This document shows, one piece after another, positions 4,300-43,178 of a stretch of 64,000 nucleotides of DNA. The stretch covers positions 594,154-658,153 of the forward strand of contig JANQNC010000001.1 of the NCBI GenBank assembly GCA_028279745.1, in the 5' to 3' direction. This DNA is from Candidatus Nanoarchaeia archaeon. Lineage in GTDB: Archaea > Nanobdellota > Nanobdellia > Woesearchaeales > JANQNC01. The notes beneath the pieces were generated by a model. It was given only the letters and a program-made list of their open reading frames with translations. It searched no databases and was not told the origin of the DNA. Within the stretch, counting starts at the first letter, position 1. Every line of letters starts with the position of its first letter. A program made the position numbers and the translations under genes.

Positions 4300-4300
4300 A

Positions 4301-21678: not shown

Positions 21679-23088
21679 CTATTTCTTAAACACTGCAAAG
21701 TATTCAAAAACACTTGAAGTGTTGTATAATAATTCTGAGCTGTCTGAAAGACGATTGAACTCTTCTCTTTTCATCACTTCACATTCTTCATCCACACAAG
21801 GGAAAGTGGAGCTGGAGAAAACAAAAAGATTATAGGAACTAGATTCGTTAAGGAACAGGTCTACGCTTGTAGGCAGATCAAAATATCTCCCATAAAACTT
21901 TTGATCTGTGCAAGGCACAACAATGGCAGTTGTTGAGAAAAGAGAATACTCTTCATCGTAACTGCTGAAAAAACTGCAAAGGTTTGTGTGAGCAGTATCC
22001 ATCTTTCCAAGGAAACCATACCCTAAAATAAATGAGTTAACCAGTATAAATACAACTACTGCGAAGACCAGCAGGTTGCTTATCCACTTAGACTTCCTTT
22101 TTATGAAAAACATGAGCTCATCCAAAGAGTGAGCAACCATTATCGTAATGAAAGGAAGGAACAATAAACCATACCTAAACTCTTTATGAGACAGCCAAGA
22201 AAAGTAGACTGTCAAAAATATTGCCGCAGTGACAAACAAATCAAAAGAAAAATCTTCGTGGAGCTTATTTTTGAAATAAAAGAAAACAAAAGCGATAAGA
22301 AGAATAAAAATCCAGTTATTAAGGAAAAACTGAACAAAGTAATAATAAAACGGCTGGGAATAGATTGCAATATTGTACCTGGTTATGTCTGCGTTAGCTA
22401 TTATAAACGGCCTTATCATTGAGTCAAAGAAGTTTGCAGTCACATCTCTGTAAAAGAAAATATTGAAAATGAAAAATAGTGAAGCAGGAATTGAGTAAAA
22501 GATTATGAATTTTATTATCTTTCTTATCTTAGCTACTTTGAAGATCATGAAAATTAACAAAGGTATCAACATCAAACCTGACGGAAACCTAATCATAAAA
22601 GCCAATCCTGCAAACAAGCCACACAATCCATACTTTTCTTCCTTAAAGAAGTAAATCGACGTAAGTAAAAGAAAAACTGCAGGTATCCCAGTAAGAAGCC
22701 TATGAGAAAAAGCAAAGAATAGAGGGAATGAAGCCAACAGTAAAACAGACCAGATTGCCGTATTTTTGTTAAAAAACTTCTTTGATAACATATAAGTCAT
22801 CGATAATGCACCAATCGCAAATGTAAGAGCTATCATTCTTCCAAATAAAACTATGGGAATATTTAGTTTCCAACCAACACCCAACAGCAGAGGGAATAGT
22901 ATAGGCCTCATCTCAGAATAAAAACCCGTCTGACCTAAAGAGTATATGAATTTAGCAATACCTATGTATTCATATTCATCGAAAAATAAAGAGTTGTAGG
23001 TTGTAAGAAGGATAATTTTTGCAGTAAGAAAAACAGCTAAAATAGCTACAAAAATCCAGTTTTCCTTGAACCAATTATTCTTCTTCAT
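21679..23088 (-). CDS. GT-C-fold membrane glycosyltransferase (PMT_2/ArnT-like)
   Basis: The 469-aa polytopic product has a first-loop FFDEYEY (DE motif) and a SHRLLTG region typical of PMT_2. Confidence 0.55.
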   Translation of the reverse strand: MKKNNWFKENWIFVAILAVFLTAKIILLTTYNSLFFDEYEYIGIAKFIYSLGQTGFYSEMRPILFPLLLGVGWKLNIPIVLFGRMIALTFAIGALSMTYMLSKKFFNKNTAIWSVLLLASFPLFFAFSHRLLTGIPAVFLLLTSIYFFKEEKYGLCGLFAGLAFMIRFPSGLMLIPLLIFMIFKVAKIRKIIKFIIFYSIPASLFFIFNIFFYRDVTANFFDSMIRPFIIANADITRYNIAIYSQPFYYYFVQFFLNNWIFILLIAFVFFYFKNKLHEDFSFDLFVTAAIFLTVYFSWLSHKEFRYGLLFLPFITIMVAHSLDELMFFIKRKSKWISNLLVFAVVVFILVNSFILGYGFLGKMDTAHTNLCSFFSSYDEEYSLFSTTAIVVPCTDQKFYGRYFDLPTSVDLFLNESSSYNLFVFSSSTFPCVDEECEVMKREEFNRLSDSSELLYNTSSVFEYFAVFKK

Positions 23089-23794
23089 TTTCTACTTCAC
23101 AAAAATCAGGCTTTTCAACATAATCATGACAGATTATATTAGCAAAATTTTTCTTGCTTATCACGCCTTGATAAACTTTATCATTAATCACAAGAGACGG
23201 CACAGAAGTTATGTTATATCTTGCTTTCAAGACCAATAAAGATCTTTCCTCTTCTTCATTGTTTAAATCGAGTGGGAAGATAAGCAACTGCTTATCCAAC
23301 TGTTTCTTGTAAAAAGTCAGAATAGTCCCTTGAATATTACACTCAGTGCATTTATCATCAAAGAAGTAAAGCACAGTAACTATATCCAAACCACAATCTT
23401 TCTTAGCCTGCTCAGCGAACAACCAATATCTTAAATTATCCAACGTGTACTGTCTTGATAAAAGATCAAACTTGTCTTTATTAAAATCAGACTCCTCGTT
23501 ATATGCTTCGATATCTGCCAAACTCTCACTCAAATCTTTAATTATATTTTCAAGTGTTGACTCAAGAACTATACAAGCTTCTGCACTGCTATTAAGAGTG
23601 TTCATAAAAAGGTACTGGAACTGCATGCTATCATAATCAAGATTCTGCATCTTGTTCTGGTTTTCTATGGATCTTACACGCTCGTTATCAACAACCAACC
23701 CAACTGAAAGACCCAACGCAAAAACTAACGAAGTGATAAAAAAAGCCACAATATACTTCTTATTGCTTCTTGCTCTAAATGAATTCTTTACCAT
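23075..23794 (-). CDS. membrane-anchored thioredoxin-fold protein (CxxC)
   Basis: It has an N-terminal TM anchor, a CTEC motif, and ITSVPSLVINDKVYQG, which resembles the thioredoxin/DsbA cis-Pro region. Confidence 0.4.
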   Translation of the reverse strand: MVKNSFRARSNKKYIVAFFITSLVFALGLSVGLVVDNERVRSIENQNKMQNLDYDSMQFQYLFMNTLNSSAEACIVLESTLENIIKDLSESLADIEAYNEESDFNKDKFDLLSRQYTLDNLRYWLFAEQAKKDCGLDIVTVLYFFDDKCTECNIQGTILTFYKKQLDKQLLIFPLDLNNEEEERSLLVLKARYNITSVPSLVINDKVYQGVISKKNFANIICHDYVEKPDFCEVENEEE

Positions 23795-25035
23795 TTCTGT
23801 TTAACCCCCAACACCAACTCAAACAATGAGATAAAGCATATGAAACTTATAAATATATTGTAAAAAAACAGATAAGCTAATAAGCTGAAAGAACCGTGCT
23901 TAAATAGCTTCTCCTCTGCATTCTTGTGAGAGAATAAAAGCATAGCGACCACCAAAAGGAATGCAAAATAAAGGATCACTATCGCGCCAAAACGAATATC
24001 TAAAATGTTAAATGAAAAAGACAAAGTAGACATGAAATGGAATATGTTAAAATTCAGTGCGGCAAGATTTGAGAACAGATGATACAGTGGTTTGAACGTA
24101 AAATATGCTGTGAAGAAAATAACTGAAAATGTAAGCATAAATGAGAAAACATTAAATGGTAGCTGAAGAAGACCAAAATCACCATATTTCTTATTAAGAA
24201 CCAACCCCCTATTCTTTAGGACAGTCAAAAATCCTCCCTTAAACCATCTTCTTCTCTGCTTAATAAGACCTTTAGGTGTGTCAGGAGAAACAGTGTAAAC
24301 ATATCCATTAAAACATTGCTTTATCTGATAATGTTTGCTTTGAAGCCTGTAAACAATCTCTTGGTCCTCAGTCAAGCTTTTAGTGTCAAAACCGCCAACT
24401 TTCTGTATAACATCTGTCCTATAGATACTGAAAGGGCCAGGAGCAACAAACAACATATTAAGCCTGGACATCATCCTAGCAAAAAACATAACTGTGATGT
24501 ACTCAAGCCTTTGCATCTTCTGAATAAGTGTTTTTGGTTTAAAGACCTTCATTGCAGGAGTTATGATCGCAACTTTCTTATTGTTTAACTGTTGGTATAA
24601 AGAGATCTGCTTCTTTAATGTTAAAGGATCAACAAAAGAATCCGCATCCAAATTTGCAAAAAACTCGGTTTTAAGAGTGCTAAGAACTTTATTAATAGAT
24701 GCAGCTTTACCCATATTCTCATGATGGATAACCTTCATGTTTCTGTCTTTGTATTTTGTTGCTGCTTTTTTCATAACAGCTAAAGTGTTATCTGAGCTGC
24801 CATCATCAACAGCGTACACTGAAAGTTTTTCTTTTGGGTATTCTAGCTTCATAATCGAGTCTATAGTCTTTCGTATTGTAGAACCCTCGTTAAATGCAGG
24901 GACAATAACTGCGACTGTGGGGAAATACTTTAACTTTGTAGATATTTTCTCCTTCTTGAAAATGTGCTCTTTATCTAAGAAGGTCAGCATCCAAAATACA
25001 AAAAAGTAAAGCGAAACAAACTGCAAACTCCACAT
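23788..25035 (-). CDS. processive family-2 glycosyltransferase (cellulose/chitin/PNAG synthase-like, QxxRW)
   Basis: It carries VAVIVPAFNE, AVDDGSSD, DADS, TEDQE and QRRRW, plus C-terminal TM helices. Confidence 0.75.
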   Translation of the reverse strand: MWSLQFVSLYFFVFWMLTFLDKEHIFKKEKISTKLKYFPTVAVIVPAFNEGSTIRKTIDSIMKLEYPKEKLSVYAVDDGSSDNTLAVMKKAATKYKDRNMKVIHHENMGKAASINKVLSTLKTEFFANLDADSFVDPLTLKKQISLYQQLNNKKVAIITPAMKVFKPKTLIQKMQRLEYITVMFFARMMSRLNMLFVAPGPFSIYRTDVIQKVGGFDTKSLTEDQEIVYRLQSKHYQIKQCFNGYVYTVSPDTPKGLIKQRRRWFKGGFLTVLKNRGLVLNKKYGDFGLLQLPFNVFSFMLTFSVIFFTAYFTFKPLYHLFSNLAALNFNIFHFMSTLSFSFNILDIRFGAIVILYFAFLLVVAMLLFSHKNAEEKLFKHGSFSLLAYLFFYNIFISFICFISLFELVLGVKQKW

Positions 25036-25054
25036 CAGAATCTTTAGCGCTATG

Positions 25055-26389
25055 TTAATTTGAATTCACCCCCCTAACTGCCCAGATCTCATTTTTACTG
25101 TCAGAGTAAGCAAGCTTAAACTTGTCACTCTTTTTCAATAAAAATAAAAGCCCTTCTTCATCTCTACTCCAGATAAGACCTTGCTTCATATCTTCAGTTA
25201 TCCAGATATACTTTATGCTATTATCTTTTAGAATGTCTAAAGTCTGGTCTAAGTTTCTATTACTGAACATATTGCTTGAAACCGACTCCATCTTGTTGTT
25301 ATCATCTGAAAAAGGTTTATTGGATGTATGATATGAAATCCAGAACCCATAGCTGTGGTGAGTCAAGATTGTGTTATTATCTGAGTTCTTGTTTAGCCAA
25401 TCCAGTGATTCTAGGGCTTCTTTTGATGGTTCAGAAAAGGAGGTTCTGTGTATGTAAGAAAGTGATGAAAAAAGCAAACCAAAAATAACTGCAAGCATAG
25501 TCAAAGATTTAATCAAGTCTACAATATACTTTCTTTTCATTATTGAAGAGAACGCATAAGTAGAAAAGACGATTATGAAAATGTTAACAAATATAAAAAC
25601 CCAGCTTGCAAAAAATAAAGCTGTGAGTGCAAGAATAAGCAAACAAACATACGCAGGGTATAACTTAAGCTTGTGTTTACTTGCGATAAAAATACCTATT
25701 ATGAACAACAATACAGTAAATATGCTGAACCCCAACCAAGAACCTAGGTCAGTTATCACTTCTGAAAGTATCAGTGAAAATGAAGACAGGTTATTTGTTG
25801 AGGGGATTGTGAAAGATTTAACAAGTGATGCAACAATCATGAAGATTATCGAAGGAATTAAAATCTTTGAAAGCTTTCTATTGTAAAAAATAAGTGAAAT
25901 TAGACATATTAAAATTATCAGGGTTTCTAAAGTTCCAAATAACGAAGAGGTTATGAGCAATAAAACAGACATGATGTTTAGCAGTTTGTTTTTTGATTGC
26001 AGCAACAATGTAGAAAGTAAAAACAAGAATAAAAGCATAGAGTGCGGTGTTGGAAATACTACACAATAAATCAATGCAGGGGATATTGCGAAAAATAAAG
26101 ATGCAAGTAGTGAAAACTTAACATTTGCCTTGAACTTGATGAGTAAACGGTAAAATATTATAACTGATAAGAATGTGAATATGAACGATAAGATGAAGGG
26201 GTTGATGAGTTGTGTTAAGAAAATGAAGGGGTTGTTAATATTGTAAATGAGATGATAATAAGGATCTGAACCAGGGAACGACCCTTTAAAGATAATCGTT
26301 CTAATCATAACAGGGAATAACAAGATTATGAGTGAGATGGGTGTTAGTGCAAGTAATGCTTTTGAATTAGTCCACTTCATCCATAACAC
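25055..26389 (-). CDS. divergent AglB/STT3-like polytopic membrane protein (degenerate WWDYG: HHSYGFW)
   Basis: It has a DPYYH motif in the first loop, about 11 TM helices and a soluble C-terminal domain. HHSYGFWISY replaces the WWDYG motif. Confidence 0.4.
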   Translation of the reverse strand: MLWMKWTNSKALLALTPISLIILLFPVMIRTIIFKGSFPGSDPYYHLIYNINNPFIFLTQLINPFILSFIFTFLSVIIFYRLLIKFKANVKFSLLASLFFAISPALIYCVVFPTPHSMLLFLFLLSTLLLQSKNKLLNIMSVLLLITSSLFGTLETLIILICLISLIFYNRKLSKILIPSIIFMIVASLVKSFTIPSTNNLSSFSLILSEVITDLGSWLGFSIFTVLLFIIGIFIASKHKLKLYPAYVCLLILALTALFFASWVFIFVNIFIIVFSTYAFSSIMKRKYIVDLIKSLTMLAVIFGLLFSSLSYIHRTSFSEPSKEALESLDWLNKNSDNNTILTHHSYGFWISYHTSNKPFSDDNNKMESVSSNMFSNRNLDQTLDILKDNSIKYIWITEDMKQGLIWSRDEEGLLFLLKKSDKFKLAYSDSKNEIWAVRGVNSN

Positions 26390-27828
26390 CCCACTTCGTA
26401 AATTAACACATTCTTATTGTAAACTTTTTCAAAACATTCAGAGTTAAGGTAATCTGGAGGCGTATCTTCCAGATATATGTAATCCACATCGTACTTAGCC
26501 AATAAATCTAAAGCTATTGTTTGGAACTTAGCATTGTATACTGTGTTGACATCATCTAATCTTATTTCTGCATCAGGTATGTTTAAAAAATTAGTATCAA
26601 TAACATTTTTTCTATCTGCAATTGACGTGATAAGATGGCCTTTATGCACATCAGCCAGAACTGTTGTGTTTTCTTCTGTGTTTTCACTTATCCATTCTAG
26701 CGCTTCAATAGTATCATCAGAAACAGAACTCTTAATGTTAAGATCCGAATAAACAAAAGATGGAATAACTGAATTGAATACAAAAATTATGAATATCAAT
26801 ATAGCAAATAAAGGGATCCTATTTGAAAACTTAGTCTTTGCAACATATTTGAAAATAAAATTAAGACAAGGGCTTAATAATACTACTAGCGTGACTCCTA
26901 AAAATACTGCACCCAGTTCTGGTGTGAGCAGTTTGAAAAATAAAAGAAGGAAAATAGTTATTGCTAAAGATGTAAAAATGTAAACAGGTCTGCTTTTTTC
27001 CACAAAAAAGTATCTATATACTGAGTAAACTCCGCAAACAAAAGGGATAATACCAATAAGAAGCATCAACTCTATCACATTTGCTGATGTGAAATACTGA
27101 TTCAGGAGTAATTCAGGAATGTTTCTCCAGATTATTGATGCTCCACTTGCAAGGAACGCATCCTTGAAGAAAATGATGTATGCCCAAACAGATATGAAAA
27201 TGAAGAACAGTATCGATTCTAATCTTGCTTCCTCAATCTTGACATCTTCAACTTTCGCCAGTATAAGATATATCCCTAAAGCTAAAGCAAGAATAGATGC
27301 AACAGGACTTATTAGTGCTAAGATAAAACAACCTATAACAAAAAAAGTTGAGTGCTTATTTATTTCTAAAAGCAGATAGACAAGCAAGAAGAAAAAAGGG
27401 ATTAAGAGTGAAAGGGTTGAAACTTTGTTAATTGTTTCGGTGAGGTAGATTGGGATAAAAATAGATACAAAAGATGTGAAAAGAGATATGTTTTTGCTGT
27501 TCGTAATCCTTTTTGATAAAAGAAAAATTACTAAGACTAAGCTTGAAGCCAGGATGTTTGGAATTATCTTTCCAACTAACGTTATCGGCAAGAAAAGATT
27601 AAAGATGGCTAACAAGTAGTGGAATATAGGTAGGAACGATAAAGTCCTTCCCCCATAGCTCAAAGGGTCATCGTACAATGGGATAAAGTTTTCTTTTATG
27701 TTTTCTACCTGTCTTAAGTTAAAGTAAGCTTCATCCCCTGTGAATGAAGGAGTTTGGAAAGCAAAAAATAACCTAAAAGACAGAGCTATAACGAAGAAAA
27801 GAATCAACCATTTATACTCGGATTTCAT
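26377..27828 (-). CDS. divergent AglB/STT3-like polytopic membrane protein
   Basis: It has DEAYFNLR in the first loop (compare DPYFNYR of STT3). The polytopic region is followed by a C-terminal domain that lacks a canonical WWDYG motif. Confidence 0.4.
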   Translation of the reverse strand: MKSEYKWLILFFVIALSFRLFFAFQTPSFTGDEAYFNLRQVENIKENFIPLYDDPLSYGGRTLSFLPIFHYLLAIFNLFLPITLVGKIIPNILASSLVLVIFLLSKRITNSKNISLFTSFVSIFIPIYLTETINKVSTLSLLIPFFFLLVYLLLEINKHSTFFVIGCFILALISPVASILALALGIYLILAKVEDVKIEEARLESILFFIFISVWAYIIFFKDAFLASGASIIWRNIPELLLNQYFTSANVIELMLLIGIIPFVCGVYSVYRYFFVEKSRPVYIFTSLAITIFLLLFFKLLTPELGAVFLGVTLVVLLSPCLNFIFKYVAKTKFSNRIPLFAILIFIIFVFNSVIPSFVYSDLNIKSSVSDDTIEALEWISENTEENTTVLADVHKGHLITSIADRKNVIDTNFLNIPDAEIRLDDVNTVYNAKFQTIALDLLAKYDVDYIYLEDTPPDYLNSECFEKVYNKNVLIYEVGCYG

Positions 27829-28655: not shown

Positions 28656-29555
28656 TTATTTTGTTTTCGAATAACTGTTCTCGGATGTAATGTCTCTCCC
28701 CTTGTCTACGTGAGGTGTGAATTTGATATCAATCCATTTAGACTTAACATTAATGGAACCATCAGGCATGTGTTTCACATAAGAATCTTTAGGAACGAAC
28801 TGATTATCAAGATGGAATACTCCCCCTGTTGAATCTAAATACTGCTTCATATCATCAGTGAATTTATAACGAGTAACACCATGTTCAGAACAAATACCTG
28901 AACTGAAATCAACGCTGGAGTCTGCCTTCCTAACACGATTTAAGTTGATTATTCCAGAAACCATGTCAACAACAGATACCCTTGCAGTATGTTTGCCTTT
29001 GAAAATAGAATGCATAACTTCAGAAGTCTCTTTTTGAGAATTATCATGGTATGCCTCTCTAGCTTTTGTTTCAGGCATTTTAGATGCCTCCTGTTCAAAT
29101 ACCTCAGGATCGCAATGAATATGCCAACCTTCAACCCTTTTATTGCCCTTAGCTAACTTTGCCAGATAGTCTCTATCCACTAACACTTCAGCTCTTATAA
29201 AACTAGAGTGGTTGTACAATTTTTCACGATATCCAGTTTCATGCCATTCTTTTTTGTCAGGCAAGTAGACCCAGTTTTCTTCAAGAGGCTGATTTAATAA
29301 AGTACGCATGTCTTGTATCCCTTCATCCATGCCTTTATTAACAACCTGCCGCGTTTTATTTTCAGTGTTTAACGCCAGCTTATCTACTAATTCATTATCA
29401 CGTTTTGGGATTCTATACTCATAATATTTTATATAATTGTAAAGTTCTTTATGGGGAATTGGAACATTAGGAAATAACTTTTCTACTGCCATTGAGGCTC
29501 CAAAGTAATAAGATGCCACAACCCATGTCCAAAATAATTTCTTTTTGAATCCCAT
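28656..29555 (-). CDS. secreted hypothetical protein
   Basis: Signal peptide MGFKKKLFWTWVVASYYFGASMA. The start was taken at this Met. The ORF track extends to 29585. Confidence 0.4.
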   Translation of the reverse strand: MGFKKKLFWTWVVASYYFGASMAVEKLFPNVPIPHKELYNYIKYYEYRIPKRDNELVDKLALNTENKTRQVVNKGMDEGIQDMRTLLNQPLEENWVYLPDKKEWHETGYREKLYNHSSFIRAEVLVDRDYLAKLAKGNKRVEGWHIHCDPEVFEQEASKMPETKAREAYHDNSQKETSEVMHSIFKGKHTARVSVVDMVSGIINLNRVRKADSSVDFSSGICSEHGVTRYKFTDDMKQYLDSTGGVFHLDNQFVPKDSYVKHMPDGSINVKSKWIDIKFTPHVDKGRDITSENSYSKTK

Positions 29556-29556
29556 A

Positions 29557-29688
29557 TTATACTCCCAAAATCTCATTAACTGCAAATTCGATAGCGTGAG
29601 ATTTATTTCTAAATACTCCTTTGCTGACTTGCTCTTTAATTCTAAAAAGGGTTTCAGTATCTATTGAAACGCATATTTTTTCCTTCAT
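29557..29688 (-). CDS. ribbon-helix-helix (CopG/Arc-like) small transcription factor, 43 aa, not in ORF track
   Basis: Manual translation gives MKEKICVSIDTETLFRIKEQVSKGVFRNKSHAIEFAVNEILGV. This shows the beta-strand (ICVSID), helix, helix pattern of RHH repressors. A TATA box TATATTTAAA lies 25-30 nt upstream. The gene is 1 nt upstream of the secreted-protein gene. Confidence 0.5.
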   Translation of the reverse strand: MKEKICVSIDTETLFRIKEQVSKGVFRNKSHAIEFAVNEILGV

Positions 29689-29747
29689 ACAGGTATGACT
29701 AAGTATAACCTATATTTAAATCTTTTGTTTTTTAGCCACTTGCGAGT

Positions 29748-29768
29748 AGTAACATATAACTAGTTACT
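29748..29768. promoter_or_regulatory. inverted repeat AGTAAC-N9-GTTACT upstream of RHH gene promoter
   Basis: This perfect 6-bp inverted repeat lies about 60-80 nt upstream of the RHH gene start. It is a candidate operator. Confidence 0.3.
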
Positions 29769-29813
29769 GCTGTTTATTACGTAATTCTATTCCCATTTAG
29801 GCACCAGATGTGT

Positions 29814-30049
29814 ACCTATTATGTAGGTATTTTTACTTACAATTTGAGTTATTTTACTTACTAATTAAGTATATTTACTTATTTTGTAGGTTTTTTACCT
29901 ACTTAGTAGGTTTAATTACTTACATAGTAGGACAAATACTTACATGGTAAGTCTTTTTTACTTACATAGTAAGTACAATAGAAAGTTTTATAAAGGATTA
30001 AACTTACAATGTAAGTTATTATAAATAAATAACAACTTACATAGTGAGT
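29814..30049. promoter_or_regulatory. array of seven 15-bp palindromes ACYTAC-N3-GTARGT plus TTTTACTTAC half-site direct repeats (candidate operator array)
   Basis: Palindrome copies lie at 29814-29828, 29897-29911, 29918-29932, 29938-29952, 29960-29974, 30002-30016 and 30035-30049. Half-sites TTTTACTTAC lie at 29831-29840 and 29853-29862. The last two palindromes flank the TATA-like TTATAAATAAAT at 30018-30029, just upstream of the ATG at 30058. Confidence 0.55.
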
Positions 30050-30057
30050 ATTAAAAC

Positions 30058-30276
30058 ATGATGGATGAGTATGGGAACGAAATAGAGACTTCTAAAATAT
30101 TTATACCTATCTCGATCTTCGAAGATAGAAGACTTTCTGCATTAGAATCAATCGTTGAATATCTCAAAGAAAAAAGACATCTAACACTACACCAAATTGG
30201 AGTCATGCTCAACAGAGATGACAGAACAATCTGGACAACATACAACAGAGCAAAACAGAAGAGGAAGAAAAGATGA
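30058..30276 (+). CDS. small HTH DNA-binding protein (sigma-70 region 4/LuxR-like helix)
   Basis: The 72-aa product carries LTLHQIGVMLNRDDRTIWTTYNRAKQKRKK, which resembles L..EIA..LG.S..TV..R..RA. It overlaps the next gene by 4 nt. Confidence 0.5.
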   Translation: MMDEYGNEIETSKIFIPISIFEDRRLSALESIVEYLKEKRHLTLHQIGVMLNRDDRTIWTTYNRAKQKRKKR

Positions 30277-32669
30277 AACATCACATAAATAACGCAGTCG
30301 CACTAATGTCGGTCATCCTAATACTTACAAGTTCAGTCTTAGTATACAATAGTGCAGAAAACATGCTAACAGGCTATTCAATCTATGATCCTGATGCAGA
30401 AATCTGCCACCAAAATATTGATTCATGTATTGACTTAGATGGAGATGGAATGGTCGGATCCGGAAGTAATGACGAAACAATATTCTCCTGTTTAATTGAT
30501 GAAAATGGACTGGGTTGTCCTGCAAACGATGCTGAATGGATTACTTTATTTGGAAACAGCAAAGAAAACTTCACAATACTAGCAGACTTTGACAATGATG
30601 GAGGAGTTAGCCAGTTAATAGACTTCCAAAGATGTTACGTGACAATGAGAGACAGAGCGATAGATGAAGGCACTTCCTATAATGTAACATGTAACCTACC
30701 ACAAGACGCAGTTAATGATGAAGTCTGCAGGTTTGGATGTCCAGACCTAAACGGAGATGGATTTGTAGACAAGTATGACTTAGCAATCTTAACCTCAGAC
30801 TCAGTATGGAAAAATGATAGTTTCAACCAAACATATCCTATGGCAGACATGACAAATGATTCTGTTGTAGATTGGGCAGATAGAAACTGTATGAGCCTGT
30901 ACTCAAATGAGTATGCACTATGCAACTTACCAAGACACTTCGAACATGAAAATGTGTATGTGTGTCCTGACTTAGAAAATATTACAACAGACTTAGACAA
31001 TGATGGATTTGTAGGAGTGAATGATAAAGCGTTGTTTGACTCTTACTTCGATGATGGTTTGTCAGTTGTTGACTTCACAGGAGAAGGAGACATCAACTGG
31101 AAAGACAGATGGGTCTTTGATGAATATTACAACTACAAAGCAGGAAGCGAATTCAATCAAAGCGTATTGAAAGTTGTAGGATGTAATTTGTACCATGCAG
31201 CATGGCACACAGGAGGGTTGGATCAGAACATTTCATGGGGGTTCACAGGAAGTGGAGGAATGCCGCAATCGATAAACTTCACCGTATTCGACAGTCCTGC
31301 AGATAATTTCGACTCGATGGGCACAACATATGGATGGCTAACAAAAGCAAGAATAAGAATAGAAGGAAACCCTGCAAATACCAAACCAATAAATGTAACG
31401 CTAATAGAACCTTCAACAGGCAAGACATTAGCAAGAACAGAAATACCTCCATTCGGAGATACAAGATGGGCTACAGCATACTTTGCATTACCACCTTACA
31501 CAAATCCAAGACTAACCAATGGAAGTAATTACACTTTGGTCCTTGATAGTCCTGTAACTGAGTTCTATGAAATACAAGGAGGACACAACTTCCAGACCTG
31601 GATGACAACAGCACATGGAGACTTGAATGGAGATGGAATAGTTGATAGTTTAGATGATCTAATCATATCTGCAATAAACGATAATCTGCAGTTTAATGGG
31701 ACAAGTAACTGGAGTTCAGATTACGATCTTAATAACGATTCAATAATAGACAATCTAGATCTGCAAATATTTGTTGATGCTGTTGGAAGCCCACCAATAT
31801 CTTCACAATCAACAATAAGTGTAGGAAGCTATTCACAAACTTTGCTGAATGGAGGAGGAATAATTCCAAACGGAGGCTTTAGTACATCTAACGGCACGGG
31901 TTGGCCACACAAATGGGTGGATAACCAACCAGATGTGGATGTTCCAACTGACATAAGTGTTGTTTCAGGAGAACTAAACATAACTGTAAACAATAACACA
32001 GGCAGTTTTACAGGTGTAAGAAGTAAAAAACTAAAACTAAAACCAAACACAAAATACAACGTAACTGCAAAAATAAAAATCCCAACCTCGATAACACAAT
32101 TAGATGGAACTTGGGAGCTACACCGACATGCACACAATGGGTTCTGTTCAGGAACGCCCGCTTGTCACGATTACACCTTATTAGGCGGGGACTACAGCTG
32201 GGATAATAGTACTTCTAGAGGGGTATGGCACGACAAATGGTGGACAATTGAAACCGGCGAGAATGTCAAAATAGGCTATGTGTTTGTTATAACAGATGTA
32301 AATGGTGGAAACGGAACAATACTTGTTGATGATGTAAGCCTCCACGAAGTTCCAGGATACGAATGGTTCGGCGGAGCTATAAAACTAAGACAGAAGTTTA
32401 CAGCAAACACAGACTCACCAATAAAAGTTGTTCAGCTAAATCTTGCGATGGATAAAGGAAATGATGATGACATCACTGTCAAGATCCTAGATGAAACGTT
32501 CACCCCAGTAGGAAGCACAGTAATACCTGCACTACACAACAGTACACCAACAATCTACAACGCAACGTTCACTCCTGCAGTTGCAGTTACACAAGACCTA
32601 GATTATTACATTGAAGTAAGTTCGCCAGGAGAATATACAGATTACAGATGGTTCGCAAACTATGACTAA
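30273..32669 (+). CDS. surface protein with four dockerin-like Ca-binding repeat pairs and a CBM4_9-like carbohydrate-binding module
   Basis: It has a signal/anchor peptide. Paired loops occur at DLNGDGFVDKYD/DMTNDSVVDWAD, DLDNDGFVGVND/DFTGEGDINWKD and DLNGDGIVDSLDD/DYDLNNDSIIDNLD. The sequence NGGFSTSNGTGWPHKW...KPNTKYNVTAKIK matches the CBM4_9 pattern. Confidence 0.6.
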   Translation: MKHHINNAVALMSVILILTSSVLVYNSAENMLTGYSIYDPDAEICHQNIDSCIDLDGDGMVGSGSNDETIFSCLIDENGLGCPANDAEWITLFGNSKENFTILADFDNDGGVSQLIDFQRCYVTMRDRAIDEGTSYNVTCNLPQDAVNDEVCRFGCPDLNGDGFVDKYDLAILTSDSVWKNDSFNQTYPMADMTNDSVVDWADRNCMSLYSNEYALCNLPRHFEHENVYVCPDLENITTDLDNDGFVGVNDKALFDSYFDDGLSVVDFTGEGDINWKDRWVFDEYYNYKAGSEFNQSVLKVVGCNLYHAAWHTGGLDQNISWGFTGSGGMPQSINFTVFDSPADNFDSMGTTYGWLTKARIRIEGNPANTKPINVTLIEPSTGKTLARTEIPPFGDTRWATAYFALPPYTNPRLTNGSNYTLVLDSPVTEFYEIQGGHNFQTWMTTAHGDLNGDGIVDSLDDLIISAINDNLQFNGTSNWSSDYDLNNDSIIDNLDLQIFVDAVGSPPISSQSTISVGSYSQTLLNGGGIIPNGGFSTSNGTGWPHKWVDNQPDVDVPTDISVVSGELNITVNNNTGSFTGVRSKKLKLKPNTKYNVTAKIKIPTSITQLDGTWELHRHAHNGFCSGTPACHDYTLLGGDYSWDNSTSRGVWHDKWWTIETGENVKIGYVFVITDVNGGNGTILVDDVSLHEVPGYEWFGGAIKLRQKFTANTDSPIKVVQLNLAMDKGNDDDITVKILDETFTPVGSTVIPALHNSTPTIYNATFTPAVAVTQDLDYYIEVSSPGEYTDYRWFANYD

Positions 32670-35600
32670 AAAAACACAAAATAAAAACATGTTGATGCTT
32701 TTGATAGTTGCAACACTATTTGCAATAACCTCTGTAGATGCTGTCCTAAACTGTACTTCGACAGATCCTTGTGAAATTCCTTTTACAGGCGGACACCCAC
32801 CAGGATTCCCCGCGCCACTAGAAAATTTACAATGTGGAGAGACGTTCTATTATGAATTTGAACTTCCAAGAAACCATAACTGCCAAGCCACAGTAATATT
32901 TGATGTGACTGATGGAGCAAACACCTCAAATAAAATAACATTCGGAGGCGATGATTTATTACAGAACTGTCAGAGAGTAATAACTTCAGCAGACTCACAA
33001 CAATGTGAAAACGTAAACATAAATGTGCCCATGGGAATAGATGAACTATTCACAGTAACTGCAAGCAGACCTGTAGAAGGGACTGAATGTAATAGCAGTG
33101 TAGAGATAGATTACACCTTAGCATATTATGCAACCTGCGCAACTACAAAAGACGGGTGGGGAAAGAATGGAAGTTTTGTAAACACAACTGGTGGAGAATT
33201 TTATTTTGAAACACTAATAGGTGAGGGTGGTAACTTCTCAGGACTGTCTATCTTTGATGTTAACAGCGATAATGTAATAAATGATACAGACTACTATGAC
33301 ATACTTTCAAGAGATGGTGAGCGAGACGGAACATTCTGGACCCCACTTATAGACTTTAACGCACAGTTTGGGGTATATGAAGTACTGCTTGATTATACGC
33401 TGGGATTCAGAGCATACTTAGGAAAAATAGTAAATGGAGCGATGCCAATAAGGTGGTTTATAACACAGGAAAATGATGGACGATGCTCATACGATGAAGA
33501 TAACACAAGCACAGACTGCCACTATTGTAACAACGATGGGTTCTGCGCAATAAACGAATATGAATACTTAGGAGAATCATGCCAAGACTGTAACGGGACA
33601 TTCCCACTAGAACCACAGATGACAGAGTTTGATTCTTGTAGCGAAACAACAGACATGGCAGACGTATTAGATATAGAACACGCAGAAAACTTCACAATAG
33701 AAGGAGAAGAACCAGGATGTAATGACGGAAACATCATGTTCACTCAAGAAATTAATCTAACAAATTCAGGATCAGGATACATACCATTAGACATTAACAC
33801 TTCAATAGACATAATTGACAATTACATAAGCGTAAATACAATAGAAGCACCACAGTTAGAGAAAGAAGCACAGCTGACAATCTACAACAGAACATGGTGC
33901 CACCCAGGAATATTAAAGAATGGTGCAGAATGTGTTGATTGTCCAGTACAAGAGTATGGAGATAAAATAAAATCATTAAACGCAACAGGAATAGCTGATG
34001 CAGACTTACTAACTAATGTAACAGGGCAAAGCTTTACACTAGAACTACAAGCAGAAAACTACACATTTGGGAAATTAACACAAAATAATGTTTACACACA
34101 GCAACAAGTCGGACAGGATAGCCCAATAAGTGTTGAGATAGTATCGGGGGCATTAACAACCAACGCAAGAATAAATATAACAGGAATAAACAAAATAATC
34201 TACCTGCCAAAGATGAACTTGGGAGGAGGACCATCTAAAGTTTATGTTGCAGAAGATGGAAGCACTTACACAGGTGCGGCACTTACAACAATATCAAAAT
34301 CTGCAGCAGATCCAATAAAAGTAACTTCACTTAGTGCAGTGAACACTTCAGGACCTCATGGAAAATCATTCTTCTGGTTCTATGCAGGAGAAACACCTAC
34401 ACTATTCGCAACAATAAATAATGATGGGATCTTCAATGCGACAGGCACAACAACAGTTCCAACACAGGTAAAAATTGTGTATACTGCAGAGTATCCTGTT
34501 AATATCACTCTAGACGGACACCATCTATTCCTACCTTCAACATTCCCCATATCTAATGCTGCATATCCTGCAACAAACAACATAACATACAAAGAAAGAG
34601 ATTTAGTGAATGTTAAAAGAACTCCTGAAAAAGATCTAAGCATAGTAGATAAAGATCCAACTAACTTAACATTTACAGTTCCAGCATTCGGATCAGAACT
34701 AATAACAGTATACGAATCAGAAGACCTAGTCCCAAGCTACAGTAACTTCAACGGAAGCACAACAAACTTCTGTTATGCAAAAGATGAAACGACAACACGA
34801 GAACTATCAATATTTAGAGCAGTCATTGAAGATACATCAAATGCAAAACTAGGATTAGTAAGTTATGCAAACTTTACAAAACTAGACCTTAATAATGAAA
34901 TCATCATGGGTGGAAGCAACAAGACAAAAATAATCTGGATAAACGGAAGCACAAGCGATGAGTTTGAAGGAAAAGCTGCAATAATAACATTCCACAGAAT
35001 GGATATAGTGCACCCACAAATAATGGGAACTGTAACAAATGTAGTTCCAATAAGACATTACGTGCCTCCAGGAGAAACACTATCAGAATTCATATTCTAT
35101 GCGGAACTAACTGGTAGTTCACCAATAAACATAACAATAGTAGACGCAGATAATCCAACAGAATTCCTAAGTGATATAGATAATATCACAATAAGAAATG
35201 GAACACAAGAAGTAAGAATTAATGTAAGTGATCACTTCAGTGATGACGATGTTAATGTGACTGACTTAGAGTATGGGGTTGCGAACCAAACAGGAAGCAT
35301 CAAAGTAACATTTGAGAAAGCAGCAAACGTAGTGACAGCAATAATAAGACCATTAACAAGGTTCTTCAATCCGTTCAGTTTCCAGTTCTTCGTTTATGAA
35401 CCTGGAGTAATTGATGGAGAGTCTGCATTCTCTAATTTCCTATTTGGAAACATACTGCCAGACAGACCACCAATACAAACACAAACAATACTAGACATAG
35501 TGTTCAATGAAGATGAAAACGGAACAATAGACTTATCTGACTACTTCGAAGATCCTGACAACCATCCATTACATTATACTTGGACACCGATAGATGCTGG

Positions 35601-38600
35601 CGGAAATATAACAATACACAAACAAGGAATGGCACAAAGCTTATGGTGGAACATAACTAATGCAACTTACACAGGGAATAACAGCATGACATTCCTACAA
35701 GAAGTTATTGCATTAGTTCAAACAAATACAACCGAACTACTTGCATCTCCAGGAACTTACGGATACATAGTGGCAGCAGGTTATGCAGACCAGACAGCTG
35801 AAGAAGGAACAGACCTACTTAGAATAAACTTCTGGAACACAACAGGAAATGGAATGTCATTCCCAGAAGGAAACATAAGCATAACATATGACAACGGAAA
35901 AGATCTGAAGATATACATACCTGAAGTTACCTATACTGATAGGAATAACTTCTCACTATTCGTATCAAAAGACGGATCAACATACTATGATGAAGGACTA
36001 ACACAGATTGCAAAAGTCTCACCTAACCCTATAGTTGTTCCTAGCTTAGTAATAGAACCAGATAGTGATTGGCACGGCAAGAGAACAATAGTCTTCATAG
36101 CAAACGACACAATACACAAGAAAACAAGCAACAACGTAGACATAATTGTTCATAACCTAAACGATGCACCAAGGAAACACAAAGACATTGATGATATAGT
36201 AATGCTAGAGGGAACTGTTGAGTTTGTTGTAAATGTAACACCCGACTACTTATTCGATATAGACATACCTACAGACACCGAGTTTGAAGCAGATGATGAA
36301 CTAACATTAACATATTCAAAACAGGGCGGCGGTGATGCTGAGTTTATCAACTTAACATTCAGCAATAACGGAGTTTATAGCGTTACAGAAGATAAACCAG
36401 TTAATATAACAGTTAAAGCACTGGATTTCCCATACTGGAACGGGTATGAAGCACTAACAGTAAAAGCAACAGACTCATACGGTAAGAGTGTTGAGACAAA
36501 CTTCACAGTATACATAATAGAAGTACCAACAGATCTTAACAGAACAATACTTCCAGCATACATCCCAATGGTTGAAGATGAAACTTATCCATTTGAACTG
36601 AACAACAACTGGTTTGTGGATGTGGAAGGAGATGCAACCTACAGATACTTCGGATTAAATTCAACAAACATAACAATAGAACTGAATATCGATAGTGGAA
36701 ATGGAACAATCAGAGCAGATCCAGACTGGTTTGGTGTAGCTGTAGTTAATTTCTCAGCATCAGACGCGACAAGCAACGTATCAGATATGTTTGTGATAAA
36801 TGTAACACCAGTAAATGACGCGCCAAGATTATATGGAGACATAGAAGTAAAACCATGGCCAAAAGATGAAAGTTATCTGGTTAATTTATCAGACCACTTC
36901 TACGAAGCATACGGAGAAGACACAAACAGTCTAGTGTTCTCAGACATAGACATAATACCAACACTAAGCACAACCTATCATGAACTAATCGCAAACAGCT
37001 ATACTAGTGAGACTGCAAACATGACCCCTGACACAGGATGGTACGGATCAGGATGGATAACCTTCTGCGCAGACGATGGTCAGTATCAGACGTGCAGCAA
37101 CATAGTAAGACTAAACATAACATCTGACAAACCGCCACAGTTAATATCACCATTCAATAGTCCGGAAATATGGCCAGAAGATAATGTTAACTACATCAAC
37201 CTAGAAGAACACTTCTGGGATGAAGAATTAGGAAGTGAGTTAGATTTCACACCATCACTAATAGGACCATTTGATGGATTCAACATAACACCATACGGGG
37301 AGTTGATTAACAGTAATGTATTACTTAACTTAAGCAACGTAAGAAAAGCAGCATACAACTTAACACTGGGAGGAGGATTCACATTCATAGCAGCAGACAA
37401 CAGTGGAAGATACTTAACAACCGCATATGGAACAAACGGAACACAGACACCAATCTTCCTATTAAGCCCACTACAACACAATGCAAAACCAATCAAGATA
37501 TACAAGACAAGCATGAAAGATCCAAGCTTTGAACTACCTGAAGAGACTTATAATTTAACAGGAAACGCAAACATTAGTGTAAGTTACACAGCTTATGAAG
37601 GAGATAAGTCAAGGAGAGTAGAAAGAAACATCGGAACAGGAATAACAGGAATAACAACAATAGATCCTATACCTGTAGTCAGTAACCAACAGTACACAGT
37701 ATCAGCAGTAATAACAACAGAGAACATAAGAGATCCTGGTGAGTCTGTAACAGTGGCAATAGAATGTGATGGCATAGCAACTGAAGTAGCAATACCAGGA
37801 ATGACAACACAAAAACAAGGACTGACAGATTGGGAGGATTGGGACACAATACAAAGAGTATACAACGTAGGATCAAGCACAGAATGTAGACCAAAATTAA
37901 TAATGGGATCTGGAACACTAGGTACTTTCTGGGCAGATCTATTCAACTTCGATAAGTACTACCCTACCAACACACCTGAAAGAGAGATGTCAATAACAGA
38001 ATCAAGCTTAGAATCAGCAACAGGAGGAGTAGAAGTATTCTTACCTGAACTAAACAACACACTACAAGCAATATACTTAGGAATAGACGGAACAACATAC
38101 TATGATGAAAACATGACAGTAGTTGCAAGAAGATCACCAAACATGGCATTAGTGCCAGACGAACACTGGTACGGCAACAGAACAATGGCAATAATTGCAA
38201 CAGACGGAATGTTTAACAGAACATCAAACAATATAAAATTAAGAATAGAACCAGTAAATGACATTCCAATATTCAAAGGACCAATCCAAAACATACCAAT
38301 GAATGAATCTGAAAGCAGAGCTGTAATACTAAGTAACTACTTCGAGGATGTTGAAGACAAAGTAGATCTAGATTACACACTTATCACAAACACAGAACCA
38401 GGAAACATATTTGTTACCATAAATAAAACTGAAAACGAAACAAACGCAACAATAACGACTGCACCAGGATGGGTTGGGTTTGGAGAACTACAATTTAAAG
38501 CAACAGACTCAAAAGGAGCGTCCAACGAGAGCAATGTGTTCATAGTATATGTTGGCGAGTATTCAGACAAAGTATTCGCAATACCTGGAGCAAATACAAC

Positions 38601-41600
38601 ATACTTCCTGGTAGAAGACCAAGGACCAAAACAGTTCCCAGTCAAAAACAAATACTTCAATGACACAGATGATGATGCAGTTTATTGGTACACAATAGAT
38701 GAAACCAAGTTTAATATGACTGCATGGGACGAAGACGCAGGATTCGGATTCATCAAACCATTACCAGACTATTGTAACTTTGTAAGCTGCACAAACACAA
38801 ACGGATATGACAATATAACATTACATGCACAAGACCCAATATCTGGAATAGTAAACACAACAGTGCAAATGGTTGTGGAATGTGTACCGGACATACCAAG
38901 AATAGAAGACGACATATACATAACCTTCCCAGAAGATACAAACTATTACACACTAATCGAATATGGATATGACCCGGATAAGATATGGGGTTGTGATAAT
39001 GTAACTGTAGAGTATCCAAGCTACGCAAATGTAAGAGTGAATCTATCAACATTCGATGGATTCAACATGAGCTTCCAGCCAGAACCTAACTTCAACGGAA
39101 TAGAGATAATCAATGTTACATTAACAGATGCTTATGGACTACAGAATTCAACAATCGTAACAATAAACGTTACACCAATAGATGATCCAACACAACTTAA
39201 CTGGACACCTTATGGATATACAATACCTGAAGATACTAACTTAACAGAAAACGTAAGCGACAAGATATGGGATGTTGATAACGTATTAACATTAAATGCT
39301 ACATACGATCCGTCAGTAATTGCATCAATAATATTTGAGCCGACCATGACCGTAGTCCCACTGATACAGAATTTCCTACAACAGATGATAGTGACACCAG
39401 TAATGGATTGGTTTGGCTTAACATTCTTCGATGTATATGCTACAAACGAATCAGGAGATGTTGTTGCAAATGTTTCATTGTATCTAAATGTAACACCAGT
39501 CAACGATGCACCAGTATGTGACGAGCAGATTGCAGATCAGGTAATGTGCGAAGATACCTTGCTTGACATACTGATAAATGGAAACATAATAGATGTAGAT
39601 AATGAAACATTAAATTACTTTGCACAAAATTTGACTGCAGGAATTGATAATGTGACATTCTTCAACGGGTGGAGAGATGAAGAAACATTATCAGAAAACA
39701 TACACTCCGTTACAGAATTTAATGATGTGCTTTATGCAGTAGGAGATGATGGATACATTGCAAGATACTATGATAAAGGTAATTGCACTGCAGAGTATGG
39801 ATGGGAGCAGGTAGAAAATACCTCAACTGCCAATGATTTACGAGCGGTCCATGGATACAACGGAATGTTGTTCACAGCAGGAGACAATGGAGAAGTTGAT
39901 GTGTATAATGGAACATGGAACAATGTAAGTAAATTTACAAGTTTAGATCTTCACGCACTGGAAACATACGATAATAAGCTATGGGTTGGAGGAGATGAAG
40001 GAGAGATATGGACATATAATGGAAACAACTGGACCAATATGACTAACTTATTCATCAACAGCCACGTAAGACATCTGAAAGCATTTGACGAAATACTGTA
40101 TGTGGGACAGTCATCAGGAACACACGGAGAAAAAATAGATTATTACAACACGAGCGAATGGAGAAACATAGTTAATGAACCATTAAACGGAAGCATAAAG
40201 GCAATGGAAGAATATGACGGAAAACTATTCGTTTCAGATGATAATGGAAGTATCGCGCACTTAGTTGAAGAAACATGGACATACCTAACAGGAACAAATG
40301 TCAATGACATAGAAAGTATGACTGTCTTTGATGGAATGTTATATACCGGTGGCGCTAGTGGAGAGATCGATAGATTTGATGGCACAGTATGGGAAAACGT
40401 GACAGGAACAACAACAGGGTTCACAACAGAGATGATACCATATAAACACTCCAAATATAACAATAATAGAGATTACCTATTCACATTCTCAAACGGAGAT
40501 GTAGATTCATATACAGGAGGATTCACAGCAGTAATCAATAGTTCAGACAACTGGTTTGGAAATGCAAATGCAACAATAGGCGCGACAGATGGTGAAATGA
40601 ACGGAACATGCGACCCAATCAATATAGAAGTGACACCAGTTGAAGATAATCCAACATTTGTCTCAATGTGGCCATGGATCAACACAGTAAGCATACTGAC
40701 AGAATCATATGATGTTGATAACTTGTACTCATACCTACAGAACTTAACATTAGATGTGTATAATGCAACCATCGAGAACAATGGAAGCTTATTATGTAGT
40801 GGTGTAAATGTTGAAAATGTAAGTTGTGAGTTCCCACAACCTGAAGATAACATGACACACACCGTGTTCGGATACTTATACGACAGCAACGGAAATGAGG
40901 CAGATAACAATCCACTAAATGCAAGCTATGAGTTTAATCCACCTACTGTTAACACAAATGCAGATGAAAGATTCTGGTTCATAGGGGATAATGGAACAAT
41001 CACAATAGGAACAACAGATGATACCGGATTATTGAATATTCAGTACTGCGTAGCAGATTATTATGAAGATGACTGCACAATAAATGAAACTGTTGCAGCG
41101 AGTGGAACTGTGAACTCACTAATACTAAGTGTAGAATGTGCACCTACAGATATAATGTGCAGAACAAAAGTCAAGTTCACAGCACAAGACATCTTCGGAA
41201 ACTATGCAGAAGAAGGAAGTGGAAGAGTCAACATGATATATGGCTCAGAAATCTATAATACCACCGTCAATGAAACAAGAAACGGAGAAAAAGTAGTTGT
41301 GTTAAATGGATCAGTAGTAAACAACTCAAACATAATCAGAAGTCTAGTAAGAAACGTAACATACAACGAAGTGACAATAATAGACAGTGAAGACAAGAAT
41401 AGTGTAACAAGTAATGCTATGATCTTTGTTGATCCATCAATACTAGAAAATAACACATACATAGGACCTAACACTTTGATCAATGCAATAATCAAACACA
41501 GCACAATAGAAGATAGCGATGTAAGAGACTCAGAAGGATGCCACATGATAATAAATGAAAGCACCATAATAAATGGAGCGATAATAAATGGAACTGTGAC

Positions 41601-42668: not shown

Positions 42669-43178
42669 ATGGAAGACATACACAATAAATGGCCCCACAG
42701 ATGGGTAAATTCAAAAGCAGCATCTGAAAACTCTAAACTGCATGGTCTTGGGGTATTCGCTAAAGAAGAAATAAAAAAAGGAGAACTAATCTGCATTCTT
42801 GGAGGAGTTATAGTTCCCAGTTCTGAAATTAAAGAATACTGGGGCAAGATGAGTCATGTGGGGATACAGATCCACGAGGACTTTTTTATGGTTCCCACAA
42901 CAAGAGAAGAGTTAGAACAAAACGGTGTATTTAACCATTCTTGTGAACCAAATATCGGCTTCTTGGAGGATATCCAGTTTGTAGCAATAAAAGATATACA
43001 ACCTGGAGAAGAGTTGGTTTTTGATTACGCATTTAGCGAAACTTTAATGGACCCTTTTGAATGTAAATGCGAGTCTGACAAATGTAGGAAAACAATAACT
43101 TCTAACGACTGGAAAATCAAAGAAATACAAACAAAATATAAAAAATACTTCTCTCCTTATTTAAGAAGAAAAATTTAA
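42669..43178 (+). CDS. SET-domain protein (lysine methyltransferase)
   Basis: It carries GLGVFAKEEIKKGELI, NHSCEPN, GEELVFDY and a post-SET Cys cluster CKCESDKC. It lies 9 nt downstream of the giant gene. Confidence 0.8.
   Translation: MEDIHNKWPHRWVNSKAASENSKLHGLGVFAKEEIKKGELICILGGVIVPSSEIKEYWGKMSHVGIQIHEDFFMVPTTREELEQNGVFNHSCEPNIGFLEDIQFVAIKDIQPGEELVFDYAFSETLMDPFECKCESDKCRKTITSNDWKIKEIQTKYKKYFSPYLRRKI

Follow-up and report, generated by a model that had tools for sequence, protein, structure and literature searches.

How two very large surface-protein genes are controlled, and by which protein, is the question raised by an intergenic region of a nanoarchaeal genome that is crowded with short palindromes. 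The region (29689-30057) belongs to a 64-kb stretch of DNA from Candidatus Nanoarchaeia archaeon, referred to here as the window, which lies in a 1.3-Mb contig; it is bounded by a 43-aa open reading frame (ORF) on the minus strand (29557-29688) and a 72-aa ORF on the plus strand. A first-pass annotation had described an operator-like array upstream of a giant-protein operon, flanked by genes for a small ribbon-helix-helix (RHH) protein and a small helix-turn-helix (HTH) protein, either of which might bind it. The flanking genes are as described, the RHH match being weak, and the array is real, far beyond chance. Its ten palindromes are probably the operators of the 72-aa HTH protein, which would thereby autoregulate the operon that it shares with the giant genes, and the balance tips modestly towards repression as the form of that regulation.

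The palindrome array and its predicted promoters

The palindrome ACYTAC-N3-GTARGT is present in ten copies within 236 bp (29814-30049), four of them perfect, five with one mismatch and one with two (Table 1); the earlier count of four perfect copies stands, while the total rises from seven to ten when mismatches are allowed. The pattern ACYTACNNNGTARGT has four perfect matches in the window, starting at 29897, 29938, 29960 and 30002 and all within the intergenic region, where 0.01 would be expected by chance, and four were reached in 0 of 100 dinucleotide-preserving shuffles of the 64 kb. At one mismatch or fewer the window holds nine copies, every one inside 29814-30049 and none elsewhere in the 64 kb. 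Matches with two mismatches outside 29800-30050 number only four, which is within chance (7.7 expected window-wide). A two-mismatch copy (ACTTACAAGTTCAGT, 30323-30337) about 50 bp inside the 798-aa gene may be a weak eleventh site or a chance match. A chance or low-complexity repeat is ruled out by the shuffles and by the conservation of half-sites in orthologous arrays, and an Rfam scan of 29000-31000 for structured RNA returned sub-threshold noise only.

The start-to-start spacings from site 1 to site 10 are 21, 21, 21, 20, 21, 20, 22, 42 and 33 bp. The first eight sites form one block in a 20-22 bp register of two helical turns, hence they would lie on the same face of the helix; Tandem Repeats Finder reports periods of 20-21 and 41. 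The spacers between these eight sites are T-rich, 5-7 bp long and without a convincing TATA box, and the sites themselves are more degenerate than site 9. The TTTTACTTAC half-sites previously noted at 22-bp intervals are the left halves of degenerate full sites spaced by about 21 bp.

It is the HTH/giant-protein operon whose promoter contains the array. One TATA-like element (predicted core promoter P1), preceded by a putative transcription factor B recognition element (BRE), lies between sites 8 and 9, and a second (P2) lies between sites 9 and 10. Archaeal transcription is initiated about 26 bp downstream of the TATA centre, so the transcription start sites (TSSs) are predicted at the 3' edges of site 9 and of site 10. 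There appear, hence, to be two tandem TATA-N8-palindrome core promoters before the HTH gene, rather than the single promoter unit previously proposed. The last palindromes do bracket a TATA-like element, as had been stated; they do not cover the BRE/TATA but flank it, and it is the interval from TATA to the predicted TSS that they cover. With the TSSs as predicted, this geometry would suit TATA-proximal operators.

Downstream of these promoters the 72-aa HTH gene is followed by genes for proteins of 798 aa and 3,332 aa, whose ORFs overlap by 8 bp at the start of the latter; both proteins have a hydrophobic segment at the N-terminus. The cytoplasmic tail of the giant protein (42106-42657, the C-terminal 184 aa) contains three repeats of about 55 aa after the transmembrane segment; they score above the cut-off against RecX_HTH1 (35.7 bits) and also resemble three-helix domains of the UBA-like kind. 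This tail was considered as a homologue of the HTH protein and was ruled out (hhalign probability 0.1).

Table 1. Positions in the window of the palindromic sites, predicted core promoters and operon genes
Feature	Positions	Strand	Sequence or description	Remarks
Site 1	29814-29828		ACCTATTATGTAGGT, 1 mismatch	Position kept in the L001/L126 alignment
Site 2	29835-29849		ACTTACAATTTGAGT, 2 mismatches	21 bp from site 1
Site 3	29856-29870		ACTTACTAATTAAGT, 1 mismatch	
Site 4	29877-29891		ACTTATTTTGTAGGT, 1 mismatch	
Site 5	29897-29911		ACCTACTTAGTAGGT, perfect	
Site 6	29918-29932		ACTTACATAGTAGGA, 1 mismatch	
Site 7	29938-29952		ACTTACATGGTAAGT, perfect	
Site 8	29960-29974		ACTTACATAGTAAGT, perfect	Last site upstream of BRE/TATA
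P1	29980-29993	+	Predicted BRE (AGAAAG) and TATA box (TTTTATAA, 29986-29993)	Predicted from sequence; same place in L001 and L126
Site 9	30002-30016		ACTTACAATGTAAGT, exact family consensus	8 bp past the P1 TATA; covers predicted P1 -12 to +3
P2	30019-30026	+	Second TATA-like box (TTATAAAT)	Predicted; TATA-N8-palindrome geometry as P1
Site 10	30035-30049		ACTTACATAGTGAGT, 1 mismatch	8 bp past the P2 TATA, 8 nt before ATG
72-aa HTH gene	30058-30276	+	Stand-alone sigma-70 region-4/LuxR-like HTH	Putative palindrome binder (cis-association, helix/half-site covariation)
798-aa gene	30273-32669	+	Secreted/surface protein, dockerin-like, DUF4082-like	Start overlaps HTH stop (ATGA); orthologue after HTH in L001
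3,332-aa gene	32662-42660	+	Giant surface protein	Signal-like N-terminus, cadherin/immunoglobulin-like stretches, C-terminal transmembrane segment, cytoplasmic tail

The HTH protein and its putative sites in related loci

A scan of metagenome contigs with an alignment of the HTH protein gave 353 loci, of which the best 80 were used for enrichment and covariation; the loci are phylogenetically related and the resulting statistics are indicative only. Among these 80, the sequence up to 500 bp upstream of the HTH gene (36 kb in total) contains 96 perfect motifs and the other 393 kb contain 2, an enrichment of about 520-fold. Cognate sites conserved in the promoters of homologues are the mark of an autoregulated factor, and putative ones are found here in 45 of 48 canonical loci with non-coding upstream sequence. 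The family consensus, drawn from 121 non-identical sites, is TACTTACAWTGTAAGTA, an 8-1-8 palindrome (aT-ACTTACA-W-TGTAAGT-At); the form is consistent with a presumed dimer on an inverted repeat, as for LuxR/GerE-type proteins on repeats of about 16-20 bp.

The two closest loci, L001 (HTH 88% identical) and L126 (72%), share the ten-site layout of eight sites, TATA, one site and one site, in register. When they are aligned with the window, 75 of 114 half-site columns are invariant, versus 38 of 115 columns in spacers and centre triplets (Fisher p = 9e-7). At 64% HTH identity (L003-L006) the order is palindrome, TATA box, palindrome, with a giant ORF downstream. A TATA-like box between the two promoter-proximal sites is found in 38 of 47 non-redundant loci, starting mostly 7-19 bp (mode 11-15) ahead of the last site, and in 19 of 36 loci the end of the last site is separated from the first in-frame start codon by 0-17 nt. 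Many relatives have a TATA box for each palindrome; for example, L162, L183, L156, L193, L195, L132 and L003 carry tandem units of 46-70 bp in which a BRE/TATA-like box is followed by a palindrome. Such upstream regions are, to judge from their layout, arrays of complete promoter-operator units and not bare operators. Helical phasing across the whole family was unsupported (resultant length 0.1-0.29); outside the clade of the window there are two clusters of spacings, near 42-46 bp and near 57-59 bp, which arise from the repetition of TATA-plus-site units.

Where enough downstream DNA is available, the small HTH gene nearly always precedes a large ORF (600 to more than 2,400 aa). These ORFs have no detectable similarity to the 798-aa and 3,332-aa proteins of the window except in L001, L002 and L126; dissimilar ones of >1,000 to >2,400 aa are found in L003, L091, L132, L138, L146, L151, L156, L162, L163, L174, L186, L200, L204 and others. 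A predicted HTH/operator head is thus conserved ahead of highly variable giant genes.

The strongest argument for the HTH protein as the binder comes from the covariation of its recognition helix with the half-sites. Where only the canonical helix RDDRT[IV]WT is encoded and the upstream sequence is non-coding, the palindrome is present (the 45 of 48 loci above); in twelve more canonical loci the HTH gene stands inside an operon and the upstream sequence is coding. Where two domains are fused, the N-terminal one with a divergent helix, and the upstream sequence is non-coding, the palindrome occurs in 1 of 14 loci (Fisher p = 9e-10, uncorrected for phylogeny). Nine of these 14 (L153, L191, L204, L146, L198, L201, L202, L189 and L154) have instead at least two asymmetric sites upstream of the fused gene, in which ACTTACA is kept and the second half is new and specific to the helix type. 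For example, helix RNEIALAV pairs with TACTTACATAATAT, helix RDxRNxWH with ACTTACAT-N3-AWYG, and helix RNDIPLRI with TACTTACATAGTATA. Since the half-site changes track the recognition helix, one HTH domain appears to read one half-site, and a single-domain homodimer would appear to read the palindrome.

In the AlphaFold2 model of the 72-aa protein (mean predicted local distance difference test score 84), about 17 disordered residues at the N-terminus precede four helices (18-22, 28-38, 44-51 and 55-70), which together form the compact three- to four-helix HTH bundle of the sigma-70 region 4/LuxR superfamily. The modelled fold is hence sigma-70 region-4/LuxR-like. The top Foldseek matches in the PDB are region 4 of extracytoplasmic function (ECF) sigma factors (including that of SigW and of SigE on -35 DNA) and the LuxR-type domain of RcsB, with probabilities of 0.97-1.0 and TM-scores up to 0.8 on the target; the E-values are weak (0.08-0.5), as only about 55 residues are ordered. 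No sequence relative of the protein was found in the PDB. By sequence, 19 of 32 homologues can be assigned to Pfam Sigma70_r4_2 (best E = 4.8e-9). The protein is not a bacterial sigma factor, being 72 aa long, with a region-4-like domain only and in an archaeal genome. Homologues are 50-88% identical and all very short or multi-copy, and in Nanoarchaeota some bear the annotation 'sigma factor-like HTH'. At 50% identity the family resolves into about 2,200 clusters, and many of its polypeptides contain 2-4 copies of the domain.

In about 15 of the best 150 representatives, four HTH copies stand at the extreme C-terminus of a giant protein (655-5,919 aa). In the two that were inspected, P0055 (1,704 aa) and P0060 (1,808 aa), the four copies are preceded by a short hydrophobic segment and a stretch rich in Lys/Arg. 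The promoter (L207:2945-3003) of one fused giant gene (L207:3001-8115) reads TACACACATAGTAAGTA - TATA - TACACACATAATAAGTA-ATG. Its sites are asymmetric and the second abuts the ATG, which reproduces the site-TATA-site-ATG layout of stand-alone HTH genes. Such a fused protein may be membrane-tethered and self-regulating.

Proposed repression and its alternatives

In the proposed mechanism, a homodimer of the 72-aa protein would fill each palindrome of 15-17 bp, with one domain on each ACTTAC(A) half-site. The HTH gene opens an operon whose genes are translationally coupled, and so its autoregulation would include both giant genes. The occupation of sites 9 and 10 between TATA and TSS, the interval in which archaeal RNA polymerase is loaded and DNA melted, would block polymerase recruitment, while sites 1-8 on one helical face would load cooperatively, raise the local concentration of repressor and sharpen the response. 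Negative feedback of this kind would cap the expression of very costly genes.

Several points weigh against this interpretation. Every functional statement in it derives from comparison, and the loci compared are not phylogenetically independent, with the consequence that the p-values make the support look stronger than it is. Most of the array, eight sites out of ten, stands upstream of the BRE/TATA, which is the usual position of archaeal activators, and site position alone leaves the sign of regulation unfixed. The tight 21-bp phasing is confined to the window, L001 and L126. The HTH protein of the window falls below every Pfam threshold, its only match being HTH_11 at E = 0.018, and the Foldseek E-values for so tiny a domain are weak. 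Palindrome pairs in DPANN archaea also precede other genes without an HTH gene nearby, and the factor may be a wider regulator and not a dedicated autoregulator.

The first of the alternatives keeps the same protein and the same sites but has them exert net activation or dual control of the surface operon. Bound at the eight upstream sites, HTH dimers would recruit the TATA-binding protein (TBP) and transcription factor B (TFB) or stabilise them, which would give positive autoregulation and an ON/OFF switch; repression from the promoter-proximal sites would set in only when HTH levels are high. Archaeal activators usually bind upstream of BRE/TATA (for example Ptr2, and the position rule of TrmBL1), where most of the array lies. 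In its conserved minimal form the layout places the TATA box between two sites, often with a spacing of about 42-46 bp, and TBP-induced bending could join such sites; palindrome pairs are also found upstream of tRNA and other genes. The best consensus match (30002), however, covers the predicted TSS region, nearly every palindrome in the relatives stands directly downstream of its own TATA box in the classical position of a repressor site, and no activation surface is identifiable in the 72-aa protein. Activation or dual control is considered unlikely.

A second proposal, slightly less probable again, is that the HTH protein goes beyond simple autorepression and serves as the read-out arm of a surface-to-promoter feedback circuit, generic for the giant surface proteins of DPANN archaea. 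The HTH domain is linked to giant genes in three forms, namely coupled upstream of them, in overlap with their 3' ends, and as four copies fused behind a C-terminal membrane anchor, and hence its presence at the promoter could depend on the status of the giant protein. The availability of the HTH protein would be tied to export, assembly, shedding or host contact of the giant protein, with membrane sequestration or proteolytic release in an anti-sigma-like role, and the eight-site phased array would act as a cooperative or titrating element that turns feedback into a switch. That such a switch would separate a free-living from a host-attached state, as the first-pass annotation suggested, is speculation.

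It is very improbable that the palindromes are instead the operators of the divergent 43-aa RHH protein. An RHH-like ORF does stand on the other side of the intergenic region, and RHH proteins such as omega, ParG and CopG bind arrays of short repeats. The match of the ORF to RHH/CdrS-like proteins is weak (E = 0.01), and neither it nor its partner, a 309-aa ORF without assigned function whose start it overlaps (the pair spans 28656-29688 on the minus strand), has a tblastn match in any of 205 related or pattern-matched loci, about 45 of which have palindromes. The co-occurrence of gene and repeats that would be expected of a CopG/Arc/MetJ-type operator is therefore lacking. In L001 the same array directly adjoins radB, and no RHH gene is present; this radB is 74% identical to that of the window, where it is inverted. 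Further, the RHH gene has a BRE/TATA of its own (29713-29725), 25 nt upstream of the ATG and some 90 bp away from site 1; the transcript of the pair is likely leaderless, and the half-site changes follow the HTH helix. The RHH/309-aa pair looks like a lineage-specific insertion or rearrangement; absent from the 205 loci and with a predicted promoter of its own, it would be a neighbour and not the cognate factor. Of the two candidates first named, it is the HTH protein that cis-association and covariation favour.

Least credible of all is a structural or maintenance element (a cluster of origin recognition boxes, a plasmid centromere with parC-like iterons, or the end of a mobile element): ten phased repeats around a promoter do resemble parC of plasmid R1, the array does sit where gene orientation diverges, and palindrome pairs do occur near RFC-like and PolD genes in other genomes, but no Orc1/Cdc6, ParA/ParM or integrase is found among the neighbours scanned (about 18-47 kb), the GC skew merely follows the coding strand, the downstream genes encode surface proteins, the sites are tandem palindromes beside TATA boxes that travel with the HTH gene whatever the left neighbour, and no double palindrome matches the viral contigs of IMG/VR.

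Surroundings, distribution and known systems

The genome is archaeal by its RadB, RadA, ribosomal protein S2 and BRE/TATA promoters, with about 35% GC, and the neighbours in the window include glycosyltransferases, an ABC transporter, RadB and RadA. A gene for a 169-aa SET-domain protein (42669-43178; Pfam SET, E = 3e-16) begins 9 bp past the giant gene on the same strand and may be the last gene of the operon. To the left of the locus, successive genes for glycosyltransferases and PMT/ALG9-like membrane proteins occupy 21679-27828 on the minus strand; the L003 cassette likewise has PMT_2 and radical-SAM genes on its left side. This may be a glycosylation neighbourhood tied to the surface proteins.

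The distribution of the palindrome was followed in GTDB genomes by searching for pairs of palindromes within 4-34 bp of each other, and all counts from this search refer to the matches listed. An HTH homologue adjoins the pair in nine contigs labelled DPANN (L019, L023, L029, L035, L051, L091, L100, L113 and L119). No HTH gene was detected in the fetched stretches of seven others with that label (L024, L025, L057, L110, L120, L109 and L071). There a pair of perfect palindromes stands before a gene for an LTD-domain secreted protein (L024:4745-4792), before one for an RFC/Rad17-like AAA protein (L025:2963-3010), before a conserved 317-aa protein without Pfam match in three genomes (L057:6468-6518, L110:1287-1337, L120:781-831) and between two tRNA genes (L071:7235-7294), while L109:4339-4452 has a cluster of four sites. 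This pattern suggests a small regulon beyond autoregulation.

Many further matches to pairs of ACTTAC-N3-GTAAGT (in the range L007-L125) come from bacteria of high GC content, for the most part Actinobacteria. In L012, the one of these loci that was examined, the pair (L012:4718-4764) lies in a divergent promoter beside a TetR-family gene (3961-4668). These bacterial pairs were rejected as members of the same system and are regarded as unrelated convergent operators, apparently of TetR type; a motif-only search across phyla is misleading for this reason. Several low-GC contigs (29-40%) that have the DPANN-type cassette or palindromes (L051, L100 and L113; also L057, L076, L109 and L110) are labelled 'uncultured Methanosarcinales archaeon'. 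Such labels may be due to mis-binning or mis-classification.

The genomes of DPANN archaea are tiny and encode few recognisable regulators, and these archaea are thought to rely on giant, fast-evolving surface proteins for host contact. The 72-aa protein and its 15-17 bp site form a candidate regulator/operator pair conserved over about 2,200 sequence clusters, whereas the giant genes behind it are unrecognisable as homologues between lineages. The covariation of one domain with one half-site can be read as a natural code of half-site recognition by a minimal sigma-4-like HTH, and giant membrane proteins with fused HTH copies point to a possible membrane-tethered control of transcription in archaea. 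In the literature searched, the exact motif was unmatched, and nothing under the topics DPANN, giant protein, HTH and archaeal sigma-4 described the module. Autoregulated HTH/operator systems are known in kind, and this one, which recurs in many small DPANN archaea of symbiotic type, is apparently undescribed. What would be new in detail is a minimal sigma-4-like archaeal regulator with a conserved 17-bp palindrome that brackets TATA boxes, the ten-site phased array of this lineage, the modular recognition of half-sites in fused paralogues, and the obligatory linkage, including physical fusion, to DPANN giant surface proteins. Even as a case of ordinary autorepression, it would apparently be the first defined cis-regulatory element for the DPANN group.

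Among known systems, the stand-alone LuxR/FixJ-type proteins come close. GerE of Bacillus subtilis is about 70 aa long, has a sigma-4-like four-helix HTH and binds inverted repeats as a dimer, and proteins of this type repress or activate according to the position of their sites. The HTH protein of the window is similarly a near-minimal sigma-4-like HTH, with the LuxR-type RcsB among its structural matches. Its homologues, however, match Sigma70_r4_2, HTH_23 and HTH_11 and none matches the GerE/LuxR Pfam model. Unlike GerE, it is archaeal and would act at a TBP/TFB-dependent BRE/TATA promoter, and it has a ten-site array, an obligatory linkage to giant surface proteins, and relatives in multi-copy and membrane-protein fusions. 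Region 4 of ECF sigma factors (SigH, SigR, SigW and SigE) gives the best structural matches, and Sigma70_r4_2 is the best Pfam family for the 19 of 32 homologues that match it. The HTH protein nevertheless lacks region 2 and belongs to an archaeon without bacterial RNA polymerase; its putative target is two-fold symmetric and located between TATA and TSS, whereas ECF region 4 binds the -35 hexamer as a monomer.

The predicted position of sites 9 and 10 would match that of the operators of several archaeal repressors. MDR1 of Archaeoglobus, Phr of Pyrococcus, NrpR of Methanococcus and the TrmB family have operators downstream of TATA that overlap the TSS; TBP and TFB bind and polymerase is excluded, and multiple operators and autoregulation occur. 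Their folds (winged HTH, DtxR-like and others) differ from that of the HTH protein, and none is known to have an eight-site upstream array phased at 20-22 bp or a conserved pairing with giant surface-protein genes. Tfx of Methanothermobacter is an archaeal protein with a sigma-4-like N-terminal HTH, which binds near a specific promoter and is a proposed activator of fmdECB. It is about twice as long as the HTH protein, with an extra C-terminal domain, no sequence relation between the two was detected here, and Tfx is not known to have palindrome arrays.

The array itself recalls parC/ParR of plasmid R1 and omega of pSM19035, in which about ten phased short repeats surround the autorepressed promoter of the operon of the binder and are bound cooperatively on one face of the DNA. 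The binders there are RHH proteins on direct or heptad repeats, which act in segregation with a ParM/ParA NTPase; here, by contrast, no ParM/ParA was found in the scanned neighbours and the array is on an apparent chromosome. The last comparison is with ToxR and CadC, membrane-tethered one-component regulators with an N-terminal winged HTH and a small periplasmic sensor. The HTH protein of the window is separate and soluble, and the fused forms differ from ToxR and CadC in having four sigma-4-like HTHs after the C-terminal anchor of a protein of 1,700-5,900 aa. The likeness lies in the arrangement: some lineages have the HTH copies joined to a surface protein with a membrane anchor, and the promoter of the gene for that protein carries related sites.

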